Of a stretch of DNA of 64,000 nucleotides, positions 4,175-58,354 are shown piece by piece. The position numbers and the translations under genes were made by a program. This stretch comes from Pirellulaceae bacterium (lineage in GTDB: Bacteria > Planctomycetota > Planctomycetia > Pirellulales > Pirellulaceae), in assembly GCA_963697195.1 (NCBI GenBank), contig CAVOND010000009.1, positions 263,821-327,820 of the forward strand, written 5' to 3'. The notes beneath the pieces were generated by a model. That model was not told the DNA's origin, made no database searches, and saw only the letters and a program-made list of their open reading frames with translations. Numbering within the stretch: the stretch's first letter is position 1; each line of letters begins with the position of its first letter.

Positions 4175-4304
4175 CCGAACTAGACCGCCTAAATTCACCA
4201 GAATGAATCAATCTCCAGTTGATAGTTTTCTGTCAGGCGTGAAAGAAATCAATCACCTATTTGGAAAATTGAGAGAAATTCATCAGGAAGCGGCAGTTTC
4301 TTCT

Positions 4305-4441
4305 CAGGTGGGCAGGTGGGCAGGTTGGGCAGGTGGGCAGTTGGGCAGTTGGGCAGTTGGGCAGTTGCGGCAGGAGGGCAGATGGGCAGTAGGCAGTTGG
4401 GCAGTCGGGCAGGGACGGGTAAAGGTGGGCGCAGGGACGGG
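4305..4441 (+). repeat. G-rich ~8-bp tandem repeat (GGGCAGTT/GGGCAGGT)
   Basis: Directly visible imperfect tandem array in an intergenic region. Confidence 0.9.
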
Positions 4442-4518
4442 AGAGGCGCGGAGACGTAGGGAGGAGAATCTCCATTGGACTAATTCCCAGTGGCGGTTGC
4501 CCAATGCCATCTGCTTTC

Positions 4519-4593
4519 TAGCGGTACGGCGCGAGCCGTCCGGTCTCGAGGACAAGATCACACCGAAGAACCGGACGGCTCGCGCCTCTGCTA
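4519..4593. repeat. Palindromic intergenic repeat, family D (GGCGCGAGCCGTCCGG...CCGGACGGCTCGCGCC)
   Basis: Inverted repeat; a related copy lies at ~19116-19185. Confidence 0.75.
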
Positions 4594-4806
4594 ACAAAAG
4601 TCACCCAATGGTCGCAAAGTCGATGGCATTGGGAGGTTGCCTCTCAGGGTCTCCCATCTCTGCGTTCGGCTTCTTCTTCTGGTTCTTGCTTCCGGCGTCG
4701 CTGCTGGGAAAAAATACGTCGCGGACGACGGCTGCCGAATCGACCGATGGCCGCTCACGCGGTAGGCTGATCGCCAATATTCAAGGACCCACTATTGAGC
4801 AGCGAC

Positions 4807-5595
4807 ATGACAGATTTGAAGGGAAAGCGGGCGATCGTTTCGGGATCGTCGATGGGAATCGGGCGGGGAATCGCCATCGAATTGGCCAAGGCCGGGGCGG
4901 AGGTCGTCATCAATTATCGCAGCCATGCGGGGGAGGCGGAATCGGCAGTGGCCGAGTGCGAGCAGGCTGGCGGTAAGGCTCACATGATTCAGGCTGACTT
5001 TGCCAGCGAGTCGGAGATCAACGCATTGGTTGCCCAGTCGATTGAGTTGATGGGAGGCGTCGACATTGCCGTCAGCAACGCCGTTTACAGCGATCGCCAC
5101 CTGTTTCTTGAATCGGAGCTGAGCGAGTTTCGCAAGACGATCGATGTCAGCATGTGGGGAGCCTTTCATTTTGTGCGGGCGACGGCCAAGCAGATGGTCT
5201 CGCAGGGCAAAGGCGGGAACGTCGTGGTGATCAGCAGTCCCCATGCGCACATGGCGATCCCGGGCGCGATGGCCTACAACATGGCCAAGGCGGCCAACGA
5301 CCAAATGGCGCGAACGGCCGCCTGTGAGTTGGCCCAGCATCGCATTCGGGTCAACATCATTCACCCCGGTTGGACCGATACGCCGGGCGAGCGAAAGTTC
5401 TTTTCGGAAGAGACACTGCGAGCCGAAGGAGCGAAGCTGCCCTGGGGCCGACTCGGCAAGCCCGAAGAGATCGGGCGCGGTGTCGTCTTTTTGTGCGATC
5501 CCGGCAGCGAATACATCACCGGCAGCACCCTGACCATCGACGGCGGGATTCAGTTGCCGTGGCGAGAAATGTACCGGATCAATGAGAAGCCGTGA
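4807..5595 (+). CDS. SDR-family NAD(P)-dependent oxidoreductase
   Basis: SGSSMGIGRG Rossmann motif, YNMAK catalytic motif, VNIIHPGWTDT, ITGSTLTIDGG. Confidence 0.92.
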   Translation: MTDLKGKRAIVSGSSMGIGRGIAIELAKAGAEVVINYRSHAGEAESAVAECEQAGGKAHMIQADFASESEINALVAQSIELMGGVDIAVSNAVYSDRHLFLESELSEFRKTIDVSMWGAFHFVRATAKQMVSQGKGGNVVVISSPHAHMAIPGAMAYNMAKAANDQMARTAACELAQHRIRVNIIHPGWTDTPGERKFFSEETLRAEGAKLPWGRLGKPEEIGRGVVFLCDPGSEYITGSTLTIDGGIQLPWREMYRINEKP

Positions 5596-5699
5596 GGGGC
5601 AGGTGGGTAAGAGGGGCAGTTGGGCAGTAGGGCAGTAGGGCAGTAGGGTAAGAGGGTAAGAGGGTAAGAGGGTAAGAGGGTAAGAGGGTAAGGCAGGGG
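5596..5699 (+). repeat. G-rich octamer tandem repeat (GGGCAGTA)n-(GGGTAAGA)n
   Basis: Five perfect GGGTAAGA units plus GGGCAGTA units directly after the SDR stop codon. Confidence 0.92.
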
Positions 5700-5718: not shown

Positions 5719-5797
5719 TGAACCTCAGGCGCTAGCCGTGGGCTCCAAGAATACCGCTTGCGTTCCACCCTGGGCCCACGGCTAGCGCTGAGGTTCA
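5719..5797. repeat. REP-like doublet, family C (TGAACCTCAGGCGCTAGCCGTGGGC...GCCCACGGCTAGCGCTGAGGTTCA)
   Basis: Inverted arms; homologous arms at 13443-13518, 17479-17559 and 23157-23212. Confidence 0.88.
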
Positions 5798-13360: not shown

Positions 13361-13397
13361 CACTAGTGCAGCGTCAGCACTTCGTTTGAGGGTTGCT

Positions 13398-13602
13398 GGC
13401 GAAAAGGGGTCAGCACGAATGGCACGACTTAGGTTGTCTCAGTGAACCTCGGGCTAGCCGTGGGCCTTCGCCGCATCCTAACGACGTTTTCTTCGCCCAC
13501 GGCTAGCGCCGAGGTTCAAAGCCCGTGCCATTCGGGTCAGACACGAAGACCGGAACGGCCCGAAGGGTGCTTCGCTTTTTTTGCGTCTGACCCCTTTTCG
13601 CC
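13398..13602. repeat. Host palindromic repeat A (GGCGAAAAGGGGTCAGACAC...GTCTGACCCCTTTTCGCC) interrupted by a MITE-like element
   Basis: Arms match the uninterrupted copy at 58276-58354. Confidence 0.85.
13417..13533. mobile_element. MITE-like element B, copy 1 (GAATGGCAC...GTGCCATTC termini)
   Basis: 9-10 bp terminal inverted repeats, flanking duplication GGGTCAG(A)CAC, no ORF. Confidence 0.75.
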
Positions 13603-13765
13603 GATCGACGTCACCCCCAATTTTAGATTTGACGATGCACGAGTCGCCGGAGCCCGACTTCGGAAGCGACCGGATCGTTCGCCTTGAGCGGCTAATTCTC
13701 CATGTCCTCTAGGACTTCCGGGCAACTGGGGTACACTCTCGACACCGAATCCTCAGGGAGGAAGC

Positions 13766-13847
13766 GGGGCTGTGGCGGAACTGGCAGACGCGCTAGATTT
13801 AGGATCTAGTTCCTTCGGGAGTGCAGGTTCGATTCCTGTCAGCCCTA
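13766..13847 (+). tRNA. tRNA-Leu (anticodon TAG)
   Basis: GGGGCTG/CAGCCCT acceptor stem, D-loop GGCAGACG, anticodon arm CTAGA-TTTAGGA-TCTAG, long variable arm, GGTTCGATTCC T-arm; CCA not encoded. Confidence 0.96.
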
Positions 13848-14312
13848 CTTGCTTTTGGGGATCTCGGTTGGCGAGGCCACGATCAAGGGTGTGGGCTTGT
13901 CGTCATTGACCATCCGACGGCAGGCCAATACATTTAGCCCCCAAAAGACGTGTTTTTGGGCTGCATTTGTGATCGTTGGTCACATTGATTTGCTTCTCAT
14001 CGCGCAGTTTTGGATCCGACATCCCGAGTGGATGATGCGCGGGTGATCGAGAGCCCGAGTCTCACGCCTGCGGTCGACATCGACCTTGCGAATCTGCGGA
14101 AACAGGTTGCCACAGCCTGATTGCCGGTGCAGCAAGCGATCTCGGTGTCGTTAGCGATCCTGGTGCAGCGAACGAGTTTTTGATCGCTGACACTTGGCTT
14201 GTGGTGCACGACTGTGACCAAGCGACAACCATCCAACTCCAATCCAAACCATTCCCAACCACCCCTCCCGAACTGAACCCATTTAGGGCATTCCCAGAGA
14301 GAAACGAACGTC

Positions 14313-16958
14313 ATGGCAACAACAAAGATGGTGTACTACTTCGGTAAGAATAAGACCGAAGGCAAAGGCAAGAGCAAAGCATTGCTTGGAGGAAAAGGGG
14401 TCAATCTCGCGGAGATGACCAGCATTGGCTTGCCGGTGCCTCCAGGGTTCACCATCACCACCGAGGTCTGCGATGCCTATTACAAGGCTGGCAAGAAACT
14501 GCCCGCGGAGTTGATGGACCAGGTCAACAAGGTGGTCGCGACGCTTGAGAAGGAACTGGGCAAGAAGTTTGGTGACGACGCCAATCCGTTGCTGGTCAGC
14601 GTTCGCAGTGGTGCTGCGGTTTCGATGCCCGGGATGATGAACACCATTTTGAACTTGGGCTTGAATGACCAGGCGACCGAGGGCTTGGCCAAGGCGACCA
14701 AGAATGAGCGATTCGCCTACGACGCCTATCGCCGCTTGATCAACATGTTTGGCGACGTGGTGATGGGAATCGATCACCATTCCTTCGAAGAAGCCTTCGA
14801 CAAGGTCAAGAAGCAGTACAAGGTCAGCGAAGATACCGACGTGCCTGCCGAAGGTCTCAAGAAGCTTTGTGAGGACTACAAGGCCGTTTACAAGAAGCAT
14901 ACCGGCGAGGATTTCCCGCAAGACCCGATGCGGCAATTGCAGTTGTCGATCGAGGCCGTGTTCGGATCGTGGAATACCACGCGAGCCGTTCGTTATCGCG
15001 AGATCGAAGGCATTCGCGGATTGCTCGGTACCGCCGTCAACGTGCAGTCGATGGTCTACGGCAACATGGGCGATGACTCGGGTACGGGCGTTGCCTTCAC
15101 GCGAAATCCCAACACCGGCGAGAACAAGTTCTTTGGCGAGTTCCTGGTCAACGCTCAAGGCGAAGACGTGGTGGCGGGGATTCGTACTCCGCAGCCGGTT
15201 GCCGAAATGCCCAAGTGGAACAAGGACGTCTACAAGGAATTGTTGGCGATCAAGAAGACGCTGGAAGATCACTACAAGGAGATGCAGGACATCGAGTTCA
15301 CGATCGAACGTGGCACGCTGTTCATGCTGCAGACCCGAACGGGCAAGCGAACCGGCGTTGCCGCCGTCAAGATCGCCTGCGACATGGTCAAGGAAGGCTT
15401 GATCGATCAGAAGGAAGCCGTGCTTCGCGTTCCCGCGAACGACTTGACTCAGCTGCTGCTGCCCAGTTTCAAGCCGACCGCCCGCAATGCCGCGGACGTG
15501 CTGACCCGTGGCCTGCCCGCTTCACCGGGTGCCGCGGTCGGCAAGCTCTCCTTCACCGCCGAAGATGCCCGAGCGCGAAAGGAAGCCGGGGAAAGTGTGA
15601 TCCTGGTTCGCAAAGAAACCAGCCCCGAAGACGTCGACGGAATGAATGCGGCCGAAGGGATCCTCACCAGCACCGGTGGCATGACGAGCCACGCGGCGGT
15701 GGTGGCTCGCGGCTGGGGCAAGTGCTGCGTGGCCGGAGCCGGCGAGATTGAAATCGATGAGAAGACGCGAAAGATCAAAGTCGGCGGCCGAACGTTCACC
15801 GAAAAGGATGTGATCAGCCTGGACGGGACCACCGGCGAAGTGATGTCGGGCGAAGTCGAAACCCAAGAGCCAAAGCTCTCGGGCGACTTCGCGAAGCTGA
15901 TGAAGTGGGCCGACGAATACCGCACCTTGGCGGTTCGCACCAACGCCGATTCGCCAACCGACAGCAAGCGAGCACGCGAGTTCGGGGCGCAAGGCATCGG
16001 GCTGTGTCGAACCGAACACATGTTCTTCGAGCCGGACCGAATCATTCACATGCGTTCGATGATTCTTGGCTGACAACGAAGCGGATCGTCGAGCCGCTCT
16101 CAAGAAGCTCTTGCCGTTCCAACGCAAAGATTTCGAAGGCATCTTCAAGGCGATGGACGGGCTGCCCGTGACGATTCGTTTGCTTGACCCGCCGCTGCAC
16201 GAGTTTCTGCCGCACGATGCAGCGGCCCAGAAGGCGATGGCAGAGGAACTCGGCGTCAAGCCCGCCGACATCGTCAAGCGTGCCGCCGCGCTGCATGAGG
16301 CCAATCCAATGCTTGGTCATCGCGGTTGCCGCTTGAGTGTCACCTACCCTGAAATCCTGGAGATGCAGGTGCGGGCGATTGTCGAAGCCGCGATCAACTG
16401 CGCCGCGAAGAAGATCAAGGCTCAGCCCGAGATCATGATTCCGCTGGTCGGCACCGCGAGCGAATTGGCGTCGCTTCGCGACCAAGGTCGAGAACACGAT
16501 CGAGGAAACCAAGGCGGCCAAGAAGTTCACCGGCAAGCTTGATATCCTGATCGGCACCATGATCGAGATTCCCGCGTGCGGCTCTGACCGCCGACGCGAT
16601 CGCGGAGTATGCCGACTTCTTCAGCTTCGGTACCAATGACTTGACGCAGATGACGTTTGGCTACAGCCGCGACGACGTCAACACGTTCTTGCCTGATTAC
16701 CTTGCGCAGGACATTCTTCACGTGGACCCCTTCCAGTCGCTTGACCAAACCGGCGTGGGACAACTTGTCGAGATGGGTGTGAAGAAGGGTCGCAGCACCA
16801 AGCCGAAGTTGAAGGTTGGGATCTGCGGCGAACATGGCGGCGATCCTTCCTCGATCGACTTCTGTCATCGAGTCGGACTGGACTACGTCAGTTGCAGCCC
16901 TTTCCGTGTGCCGATCGCTCGCTTGGCTGCCGCTCAGGCGGCCCTGCGGAACGCCTAG
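14313..16958 (+). CDS. ppdK: Pyruvate, phosphate dikinase (split by indels)
   Basis: [32 protein letters not shown] phospho-His motif, [29 protein letters not shown]. Confidence 0.97.
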
Positions 16959-17070
16959 GCTTCGAACGCGCTCTACGATCCTGCGTGTCGGCCGAATCTC
17001 CCGGTTCGGCCGACATGCCGCTTCACGGTCCCCCGCTTCCTCCTGTTTCTTCTCCTCGAAGGTCTTTCCG

Positions 17071-17406
17071 ATGAGCGACTTGCACGCCCGTTACAACGAA
17101 GTCGAACGGTTGATCGACGAGGAGAAATTCGAGGAGGCCATTGAGGGTTTGAAGCAGATCGTGGAGGAGGACGATGCCTTCGTGCTCGCCCATCTGGCTC
17201 TGTCGCGGGTTTACACCAAGACCGGCCAGCATGATCTGGCGATCCAACACGGCGTGAAGGCTTGTGAACTGGAGCCCAGTGACTCGTTCAACTTCACCGC
17301 CTTGAGTGTGACCTACCAGCGTGCCTGGGCCGGCACTCAGGATCAGCAGTACATCGCCAAGGCCGAAGAGGCGATGGCCCGAGCTCAAATGCTGGCCCAG
17401 CAGTGA
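17071..17406 (+). CDS. Small TPR-like protein
   Basis: Helical repeats: LAHLALSRVYTKTGQHDLAIQHGVKACELEP. Confidence 0.75.
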   Translation: MSDLHARYNEVERLIDEEKFEEAIEGLKQIVEEDDAFVLAHLALSRVYTKTGQHDLAIQHGVKACELEPSDSFNFTALSVTYQRAWAGTQDQQYIAKAEEAMARAQMLAQQ

Positions 17407-17450
17407 ACGCCCCAGGTTCGGGAAAAGGTTCGGGCAAAGGGTCGGGAAAT

Positions 17451-17689
17451 AGGGGTCAGACACGAATAGCACGGGCTTTGAACCTCGGCGCTAGCCGTGG
17501 GCGAAGAAAGAAAACGTCGTTAGGATGCGGCGAAGGCCCACGGCTAGCGCCGAGGTTCAGCTGAGACAACCTAAGTTCGTGCCATTCGGGTCAGACACCA
17601 AAAGCCCAGACACCAAAAGCCGGAACGGCCCTTCGGGTGCTTTGCACTTTTGGTGTCTGGCACTTTTGGTGTCTGACCCCTTTTTCCCC
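17451..17689. repeat. Host repeat A, second interrupted copy with duplicated inner arms
   Basis: GGGGTCAGACAC...GGTGTCTGACCCCTTTT; CAGACACCAAAAGCC and GCACTTTTGGTGTCTG are each doubled. Confidence 0.85.
17464..17587. mobile_element. MITE-like element B, copy 2 (inverted relative to copy 1)
   Basis: GAATAGCAC...GTGCCATTC termini, perfect GGGTCAGACAC duplication on both sides. Confidence 0.78.
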
Positions 17690-17929
17690 GTGCCCACTGC
17701 CCCCTGCCCGACTGCCCAGCTGCCCAGCCGCTGCCCAGCTGATACCCCCACCTTATCCCTCCTAATTTCCCTCCTCAGCGAGCTTCGCCCGCCGTTTTTA
17801 CCGACTATTACAGCTCTGTTACATCGCGGACCCCAATTGGTGACAGAGCTGGGAGGCAGTTTCGATACACTTCTGGCGTTGATTGTCGGCAGGGGATGCT
17901 GACCAGCCCATTCGCTTCCAGGAACACTC

Positions 17930-19038: not shown

Positions 19039-19185
19039 GTAGGGCGGTCTCTCCGAGACCGTCATTCCTCGCGGCTTTGCCGCGAAAACTCCGAGCCTGG
19101 GAGAGACTCGGCTACAGGGCGCGAGCCGTCCGGTCTCGACCGCAAAATCACAGGGAAGAACCGGATCGCTCGCCCCCTTCCGCTA
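19039..19185. repeat. GTAG-type REP doublet followed by a family D repeat
   Basis: GTAGGGCGGTCTCTCCGAGACCG...GAGAGACTCGGCTAC, then GCGAGCCGTCCGG...CCGGATCGCTCGC. Confidence 0.75.
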
Positions 19186-19606
19186 GAAACAGCCGCCCCG
19201 ATTGGTCGCAAAGGAGACGGATTGGACTCGCGCCTAGCGGTTCGACCATCGAACTGGACGCCGATAGCAATTGCAAAAACACGCTAGCAATTCGAACGGA
19301 AAAGAAAAAGTTTCTTCGACTCTGGGCTAGATCACTGTTGACACGCCCCTTCGAAACTGACTATTTCCCGAACGAACCAGATTCCTTGCCGCCCTTATCG
19401 ACACGATAGGTCCGTTTCAGCACCATGGAAGTGCGTCGACGCGGGTGGCAAGGAGAGATCAGGAAAACGAAGGCTGATACATCGGCCAAGCGTGGGAAGC
19501 CCGTTCCCGCCGCAGTCGCTCTCGCAAGAAAGACGAGAGCGCGAAAGCGGTTTGGATTGGTGACCGCGTTATTCAAGAAGTCTCACCGCGAAGAAGGAGA
19601 GTCGCG

Positions 19607-23156: not shown

Positions 23157-23212
23157 GGCCCACGGCTAGTGCCTGAGGTTCACATGTGAACCTCAGGCAC
23201 TAGCCGTGGGCC
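23157..23212. repeat. Perfect 56-bp palindrome made of two family C units
   Basis: GGCCCACGGCTAGTGCCTGAGGTTCACA|TGTGAACCTCAGGCACTAGCCGTGGGCC. Confidence 0.92.
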
Positions 23213-58275: not shown

Positions 58276-58354
58276 GGCGAAAAGGGGTCAGACACCAAAA
58301 ACCGGAACGGCCCGAAGGGTGCTTCGCATTTTTGGTGTCTGACCCCTTTTCGCC
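58276..58354. repeat. Host palindromic repeat A, uninterrupted (empty) copy
   Basis: GGCGAAAAGGGGTCAGACACCAAAAA...TTTTTGGTGTCTGACCCCTTTTCGCC. Confidence 0.9.

Follow-up and report, generated by a model that had tools for sequence, protein, structure and literature searches.

How does a palindromic repeat come to be interrupted twice, at the same position and in opposite orientations, by an insert that consists for the most part of another palindromic repeat? This question is raised by a window of 64,000 nucleotides from a Pirellulaceae bacterium, G000:C9:263821-327820, in which G000 denotes assembly GCA_963697195.1 (8.5 Mb, 86.6% complete) and C9 its contig CAVOND010000009.1; other loci of the assembly are given in the same way. 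In this window a doublet of palindromic arms, repeat A, is broken at 13417-13533 and 17464-17587 by two copies of an element, M1, which holds a doublet of a second family, family C, resembling repetitive extragenic palindromic (REP) sequences. A sequence-only reading had described these same-position interruptions by a 117/124-bp insert, and its coordinates all check. M1 is very probably a 121-bp non-coding carrier of a REP doublet with ends of the IS4 subgroup of insertion sequences (IS), likely moved in trans by a DDE transposase of this subgroup into the arms of repeat A. In window coordinates, the features concerned are the following (MITE stands for miniature inverted-repeat transposable element):

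13398 to 13602, plus strand: repeat A doublet, copy 1, split in its first arm
13407 to 13416, plus strand: left target duplication flanking copy 1, short of one A (10 of 11 bases)
13417 to 13533, plus strand: M1 MITE copy 1, 117 bp, four bases shorter than a 121-bp copy and with zero substitutions
13443 to 13518, plus strand: family C REP-like doublet within M1 copy 1
13534 to 13544, plus strand: right target duplication of copy 1, GGGTCAGACAC
17443 to 17689, plus strand: copy 2 of repeat A, a variant containing small internal duplications and split in the same arm as copy 1
17453 to 17463, plus strand: left target duplication of copy 2, a perfect 11 bp (GGGTCAGACAC)
17464 to 17587, minus strand: M1 MITE copy 2, 124 bp, reversed relative to copy 1
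17479 to 17559, unstranded: family C doublet within M1 copy 2, with 24-nt arms that are 100% complementary
17588 to 17598, plus strand: right target duplication of copy 2 (GGGTCAGACAC)
13366 to 13640, plus strand: outer MITE M4 with repeat A as its core, bordered by TA on the left and GA on the right
58276 to 58354, plus strand: empty repeat A doublet, folding as single-stranded DNA at -40 kcal/mol (z = -9.5)
5719 to 5797, unstranded: free family C doublet with its own spacer
23157 to 23212, unstranded: two family C arms abutting in reverse arrangement, without spacer

Both window copies of M1 directly follow the same arm of repeat A, in opposite orientations, and are distinguished chiefly by indels. 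Since contigs from other samples carry the 121-bp letters at both places, these indels may be assembly errors or decay. The missing base in the left duplication of copy 1 and the free family C arms at 5719 and 23157 had been noted before and were found again. The doublet at 58276, previously taken as the empty site, is merely another copy of repeat A and an allele of neither locus. In a search for empty alleles, no contig bridging either locus was found among the contigs of 6 of the 13 runs, of which small shares each were covered; a joint 13413-13549 was rejected as such an allele, since it has only 20 letters on its short side and likely comes from other copies of repeat A.

The M1 copies throughout the genome place the observation far outside what chance would give. 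A blast search with a 121-bp genomic M1 query returned 95 matches of at least 100 nt on 94 loci; 9 loci without one end were dropped, which left 85 copies with both ends. This number does not include a few longer copies, in which arms are expanded or more DNA is inserted. M1 contains no gene, is usually 121 bp long (58 of 81) and has IS4-type GAATGGCAC ends, with GAATGGCACGAACTTA on the left and GAATGGCACGGGCTTT on the right. Over the 95 matches the flanks repeat perfectly for 11 bp in 56 and for 12 bp in 1, and for 7–10, 13 or 14 bp in none; among the 85 copies the flanking 11-mers differ by no mismatch in 56, one in 7, two in 9 and at least three in 13. In 5 of the 56 perfect cases the outermost base of the duplication is A or T on both sides instead of G or C. 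This base therefore belongs to the target, the element reads GAATGG...CCATTC, and of the two lengths that the sequence-only reading had left open, 11 and 9 bp, the former holds and the latter is ruled out. The copies differ from their majority sequence by a mean of 3.2 substitutions, and 11 are identical to it. M1 thus has the properties of a MITE (short, non-coding, terminal inverted repeats, target duplication, 85 copies) and not those of an autonomous IS, which would span 1.4-1.65 kb and encode a transposase; it is an IS derivative, not an IS. Among the longer copies, the left C arm is expanded into tandem 36-bp units at C31:68483-68927 and C11 near 761,100-761,480, with ends and 11-bp duplication still kept. 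A 2,463-bp segment with apparent ends and a near-duplication (C5:1270242-1272704) holds a normal M1 with its own duplication and was not taken as an element. At C5:1270242 an A-like arm is immediately followed by a lone GAATGGCAC end; an IS200-type gene, itself adjoined by an M1-filled palindrome, lies 1.5 kb away.

Where M1 inserts is sharply defined. In 83 of the 85 copies the flank lies within three mismatches of an A arm, so that the previously proposed genome search for paired termini with tabulated flanks bore out the association and, with the 56 perfect cases, the target duplication. The A-arm pattern has 639 matches in the genome versus 16 on the reversed genome, and an IS4-type end follows 102 of the 639: 87 of M1, 11 of M3 (an element with M1-type ends around another doublet) and 4 others. 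The junction lies 16 nt from the start of AAAAG in 95 of 100 scorable junctions. Doublets hold 64 of the 85 sites and single palindromes 14, the other 7 lying elsewhere; because single palindromes are also hit, what the enzyme recognises is likely the near-palindromic arm AAAAG-GGGTCAGACAC-C and not the doublet as a whole. Where arm and orientation could be assigned (50 copies; 35 are unclassed), the four classes hold 10, 12, 15 and 13, and the overall split is 23 versus 30 (p = 0.41). The distal flanks are distinct in all 85 copies, none of which stands in a doubly filled A doublet. Occupation of either arm in either orientation at one offset argues for independent insertions, and the 21 different 11-mers that are each perfectly duplicated on both sides of M1 require separate events. 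The opposite orientations in the window had been ascribed to independent insertion or inversion; the former is upheld and the latter is not. That repeat A serves as a "safe" target, as had been supposed, gains indirect support: open frames of at least 300 codons contain 13 of the 84 rebuilt sites versus 369 of 600 random positions, an overlap that is a rough proxy for intergenic location and not a gene call.

The cargo of M1 belongs to family C, which comprises 625 arms in the genome, 148 of them inside the 85 M1 copies; 85 doublets ride in the IS4-type MITE versus 53 outside it. Spacers of the outside doublets come in 52 kinds, and the M1 spacer is shared by few of them, which stand at loci of M1 copies or derivatives. 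Since a single spacer, in one orientation, is common to 83 of the 85 M1 copies, as is the G-variant arm, the simplest reading would be the capture of a single C doublet followed by amplification. Like REPs and their hairpin-forming doublets (REPINs), family C consists of inverted doublets of short palindromes (hairpin z = -8.3) in hundreds of extragenic copies. A Y1 transposase gene at C11:621200 is flanked by 12 family C arms within 1.2 kb; it scores above the cut-off of PF01797 and below those of NCBIfam, and its motifs NHVH and YVLEGQ are close to the class 3 TnpA-Y1 signature, which is described for Planctomycetes (Quentin et al., 2018, PMC6006769). The arms begin with GTGA, with G at -1 in 37 of 40, and have neither the GTAG foot nor the CnGA foot of class 3; family C is a REP-like repeat and not a canonical GTAG REP. 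No internal REP doublet was found in five of six IS4 elements, full-length or remnant, and one weak 75% pair in the sixth.

A comparison between samples bears on the mobility of M1. A 498-nt contig of run X1 (depth 3.6) contains an A arm and 40 nt of M1 followed by a flank that matches C5:501731 of G000 exactly and there only, and G000 has at this place the bare palindrome AAAAAG-GTGTCTGACAC-CTTTTTT. The site thus appears to be filled in X1 and empty in G000, a polymorphism that would speak for present activity of M1. The four differing letters of the contig would be three arm differences and one end variant of window copy 2. Where X1 pieces cover unique DNA, their identity with the window is about 94-99%, which would fit a close strain.

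Around window copy 1 lies a further layer, M4, which is 149 bp long when empty and has GTGCA(G/T)CGTCA ends. Its census in G000 gives 79 left ends and 103 right ends. They form 37 pairs, each with A arms inside; TA borders 24 of the pairs on both sides, 8 hold M1 and 4 lie inside C arms. The sites are mostly C-TA-G, and duplication of TA is told apart from that of CTAG by only a few variant copies. Duplication of TA at CTAG is the target rule of IS630-type elements, and M4 is likely an IS630-type MITE, whose partner would be an IS630-family element with GTGCAGCGTCA ends. No autonomous IS630 with M4 ends was found near the IS630 matches of G000, the M4 end motif does not rise above background in 44 further genomes of the genus, and M4 was not found in the relatives searched. 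Because only 26 of 207 empty A doublets lie inside paired M4 (85 lie near an M4 end), repeat A is not merely cargo of M4. The nesting described by the sequence-only reading is real; its three levels are four at locus 1, M4[A[M1[C]]], as the outer M4 had been missed, and five at C5:1179064-1179336, A[M1[C[M4[A]]]]. M1 and M4 insert into each other's cargo, A in M4 and C in M1. An M4-like element at the CTAG of a family C arm on metagenome contig L207 (601-720) indicates that M4 also enters C outside G000. Two further MITEs take part in this pattern: M3 has 14 of its 16 matches in A arms, and M2, with CAATGCCAC ends and a 10-bp duplication, has 7 of 25 genome-wide matches in family C arms. A copy of M2 with CAATGCCA ends, a different doublet and a 10-bp duplication with one mismatch stands in the window at 4502-4631, and a fragment near 19116-19225. 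A-like palindromes, as GGTGTC variants, also flank a 225-aa Y1 gene at C28:603371, which scores 55 bits on NF047646 (cut-off 80).

Which enzyme could move M1? The IS4 subgroup is defined by ends of the form -AATR--------WTW and by 10-13 bp duplications (De Palmenaer et al., 2008, PMC2266710, Table 1); the M1 ends match this form and the 11-bp duplication falls within this range. Of the 44 other genomes of the genus, 15 have IS4 homologues, with paired GAATG ends at 23 of 30 loci examined, most of them with 11-bp duplications; one of these homologues, L044, scores 218 bits on NF033592 (cut-off 115) and has the D, D and YREK motif. The sole cognate-type IS4 of G000 is a remnant at C5:1025081-1026485 with 18-bp perfect ends starting GAATGGCAC. 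In a tree that left out 7 loci without paired ends, the elements with more M1-like ends (GAATGGCACGGGCG, GAATGGCACTTAAT) form a group separate from this remnant, with moderate support (84/86), and L053, L054, L056 and L069 of this group sit in A-like arms. A further homologue, L058, also sits in such an arm. The M1 partner would thus likely come from a clade in which autonomous elements occupy A-like arms, and would have been lost or be missing from the incomplete assembly; it is deduced from the sequences of relatives, not found in G000. The expectation of a full-length IS with the same termini therefore held for relatives in the genus and not for an intact transposase gene in the assembly. 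The core claim of the sequence-only reading, a non-autonomous IS4-type element with one repeat family as target and a second as cargo, is supported by the ends, by duplications of 11 bp, by the constant offset and by insertion in both orientations, and is backed by these autonomous elements and one filled/empty polymorphism. A search for Nterm_IS4 in G000 gave no match. A 437-aa multi-copy IS4-family element (NF033590) was rejected as a partner, as its ends are unrelated to M1; it is 1.7 kb long, has CCCAGCCC ends and is present among other repeats at C9:354135-355827 and four more loci, four copies being about 99.5% alike. At C10:86755-86930 a short N-terminal IS4 fragment lies about 20 bp from an M1 copy with two left-type ends. 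The palindrome GTTGG(T/A)CCAAC is the target of another IS4-subgroup group (L043, L044, L048, L059, L061, L066, L070, L071 and L078, one of them a MITE).

In the mechanism that we propose, an IS4-subgroup DDE transposase would move M1 in trans, cutting the A arm at a fixed position with an 11-bp stagger, and the partner element would be an intact IS4 with GAATGGCACG ends. An early M1 copy would have taken up a single family C doublet, by insertion through a Y1 transposase or by template switching during gap repair, both of which would fit, and its amplification would leave more C doublets in M1 than free. Repeat A would partly travel in M4, which would land on CTAG of family C arms, and mutual insertion of M1 and M4 into their cargo would build the nests. 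Several findings weigh against this mechanism. The G000 remnant is frameshifted and lacks about 135 codons (about residues 126-261 of L044), both catalytic aspartates among them; no target duplication borders it, and the elements most closely related to it insert at GTTGG(T/A)CCAAC and not in A arms. Its catalytic deletion and the different target of its clade led us to reject it as an active partner, and no intact cognate transposase was found in the 86.6% complete assembly, where tblastn with 14 intact homologues returned the remnant and a short fragment. Even in the group with M1-like ends the targets are mixed, those of L052, L062, L055 and L072 being not clearly A-like. Duplications are imperfect in 29 of the 85 copies, 13 of them with at least three mismatches, two copies have swapped or converted ends, and no REP-less precursor of M1 was present among 3 short end pairs. 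The polymorphism consists of one junction on one contig of depth 3.6, and a second loose end, in run X5, has no match in G000.

The irregular copies bear on rival explanations. The swapped or converted ends indicate that recombination also acts on M1, and one could suppose one or a few true insertions of M1, after which copies of repeat A exchanged it by recombination or gene conversion, or M4 carried it along as a passenger. Of the 85 copies, 8 lie inside paired M4, 7 of these in the same arm; at C5:651217 and C10:108060 M1 has a left arm on one side and a right arm on the other, the spacer being lost; and hybrid ends occur in two copies. The duplicated 11-mers, each specific to its locus, largely refute this view. 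Moreover, M1 uses both arms and both orientations about evenly, inside M4 as elsewhere (4 same, 3 opposite, 1 unclassed), and 77 of the 85 copies lie outside paired M4, so that spread by recombination or with M4 is improbable. It is still less probable that the whole unit is moved by the Y1 transposase, of the REP-associated tyrosine transposase (RAYT) type, that belongs to the family C arms, with the IS4-like ends as leftovers. The Y1 gene among 12 C arms would supply such an enzyme, and the C doublet makes up most of M1; M1, however, extends 15 and 27 nt beyond the C arms and stops precisely at the IS4-type ends, none of 40 free C doublets has a flanking duplication of 4-6 nt, and M3 reaches the same target with the same ends around a different doublet. 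The HUH enzymes, to which this view would appeal, are not known to make staggered duplications.

Least probable of all is that the difference in orientation reflects a site-specific inversion switch or that the two window loci were mis-assembled from one sequence, although the window copies contain indels and one genomic M1 has swapped outer ends. The loci differ in their hosts and neighbours: copy 1 has an L9-like gene on one side and a tRNA-Leu gene (13766-13848) on the other, while copy 2 lies past the stop of a 196-aa gene, in surroundings (17443-17689) without visible M4 ends. This speaks against mis-assembly, which the sequence-only reading had named as a way to fail. In addition, end-specific bases are linked to the core in nearly all M1 copies, and M1 pieces in contigs of independent runs reach a summed depth, which is not a copy number, of 80-270 versus about 3 for unique neighbours. 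Transposition of M1 in trans by an IS4-subgroup enzyme thus stands as the explanation that we prefer.

Is this a peculiarity of one genome? M1 was found in none of 40 relatives by DNA, apart from one weak 38-nt match, and in none of 300 by end pattern; in JGI metagenomes its end is absent and an arm variant is present at 3 loci, none of them M1. Five of the 44 other genomes in the genus match the M1 end pattern: elements of 122-123 bp in G046 and G021 hold different REP-like doublets, the arms of which are found at further places of the same genomes, G019 has an element with a hairpin-like core and G058 one without a doublet, while the match in G014 has no duplication. A scan of all genomes with a length-restricted end pattern gave at least 117 loci, several per genome. 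Among the matches listed, 44 loci have an 11-bp duplication with at most two mismatches, 30 of them perfect; of these 44, 22 contain an internal inverted repeat above 100 shuffles (a score without intergenic baseline), 14 carry a CGTC-type dimer and 16 have an A-like target, for which the expectation is 0.23% for a single random 11-mer. The corresponding counts for the other 73 are 19, 8 and 9, and some of these loci have 10- or 12-bp duplications. IS4-ended MITEs with other REP doublets therefore seem to recur across phyla (22 of the 44). A more far-reaching proposal, which we put forward tentatively and at somewhat less than even odds, is that IS4-subgroup ends capture REP doublets repeatedly across phyla and that REP-cored MITEs would be a real class, for which the DDE enzyme offers a second route of replication, pairs such as M1 and M4 seeding each other's landing sites in a self-feeding network.

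Each ingredient of the M1 system is of a known kind. Elements of the IS4 subgroup, as described in PMC2266710, share its ends, 10-13 bp duplications and marked insertion specificity in target arms; they are full-length, and the main text of that source does not use the term MITE, whereas M1 has 121 bp and is non-coding. Insertion of an IS4-family element into REPs is published for ISRm22 (Tobes and Pareja, 2006, PMC1525189), which according to that account also breaks its REP at one fixed point in all copies and has imperfect duplications attributed to recombination; unlike M1, it is autonomous and without a second repeat as cargo, and the repeats given for it are of 6 bp, at the axis of the palindrome. 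The bacterial MITEs Correia/NEMIS, RUP, ERIC and Nezha (Delihas, 2011, PMC3184786; Di Nocera et al., 2013, PMC3733652) are portrayed, like M1, as short and non-coding with terminal inverted repeats, and as moved in trans, with target duplications and high copy number (PMC3184786). In these sources MITEs and REPs are treated as separate classes, whereas the body of M1 is a REP doublet and its target another. REPINs with their RAYTs (Bertels and Rainey, 2011, PMC3337134) resemble family C in their inverted doublets, variable spacers and Y1 gene; family C differs in lacking the GTAG foot and in that its commonest doublet lies inside IS4-type ends and is not free. Repeats flanking TIRYT genes, with the consensus GGGGWSAS (PMC3733652), resemble the A arm, which contains GGGGTCAG and fits this motif, and likewise form dimers flanking Y1 genes; unlike them as described there, repeat A is also the target of an IS4-type MITE and the cargo of a second MITE. 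The CGTC repeats were reported in the same source without a dedicated transposase, their movement being left open and other transposases suggested, and were later linked to Ssn nucleases (PMC11893778). No paper on IS4 MITEs built on REP doublets, or on mutual nesting, was found by title or opening of the abstract, a search that leaves supplements and subscription papers outside its coverage.

The window contains further repeats. Tandem repeats of 8 nt (GGGCAGTT type) stand directly past gene ends at 4294-4418, 5589-5664 and 17700-17740, and at least three more REP-like families are present (7285, 29244 and 60474; 23309, 25655 and 39978; 34656 and 49566), the top 16-mer of each having 170-330 copies genome-wide. 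Between the two M1 loci, at 14313-16073, an open reading frame for pyruvate phosphate dikinase ends at 586 aa compared with 865 model positions, which suggests a frameshift and perhaps an assembly indel.

The findings imply no new enzyme or pathway. Their meaning lies in how such repeats spread: the spread of REP doublets is commonly attributed to Y1 transposases of their own, and carriage by an IS4-type MITE is likely a second way. Since more family C doublets lie in M1 than outside it, repeat counts in such genomes can reflect the activity of another enzyme. The sharp preference for an 11-bp site and the mutual nesting make M1 and M4 a compact system in which target choice can be studied. 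If the proposal holds, the DDE-driven route would also serve CGTC-type doublets, for which no dedicated transposase has been found, and the CGTC-type dimers in 14 of the 44 IS4-ended MITEs among the matches listed offer a testable route for the movement of these repeats.

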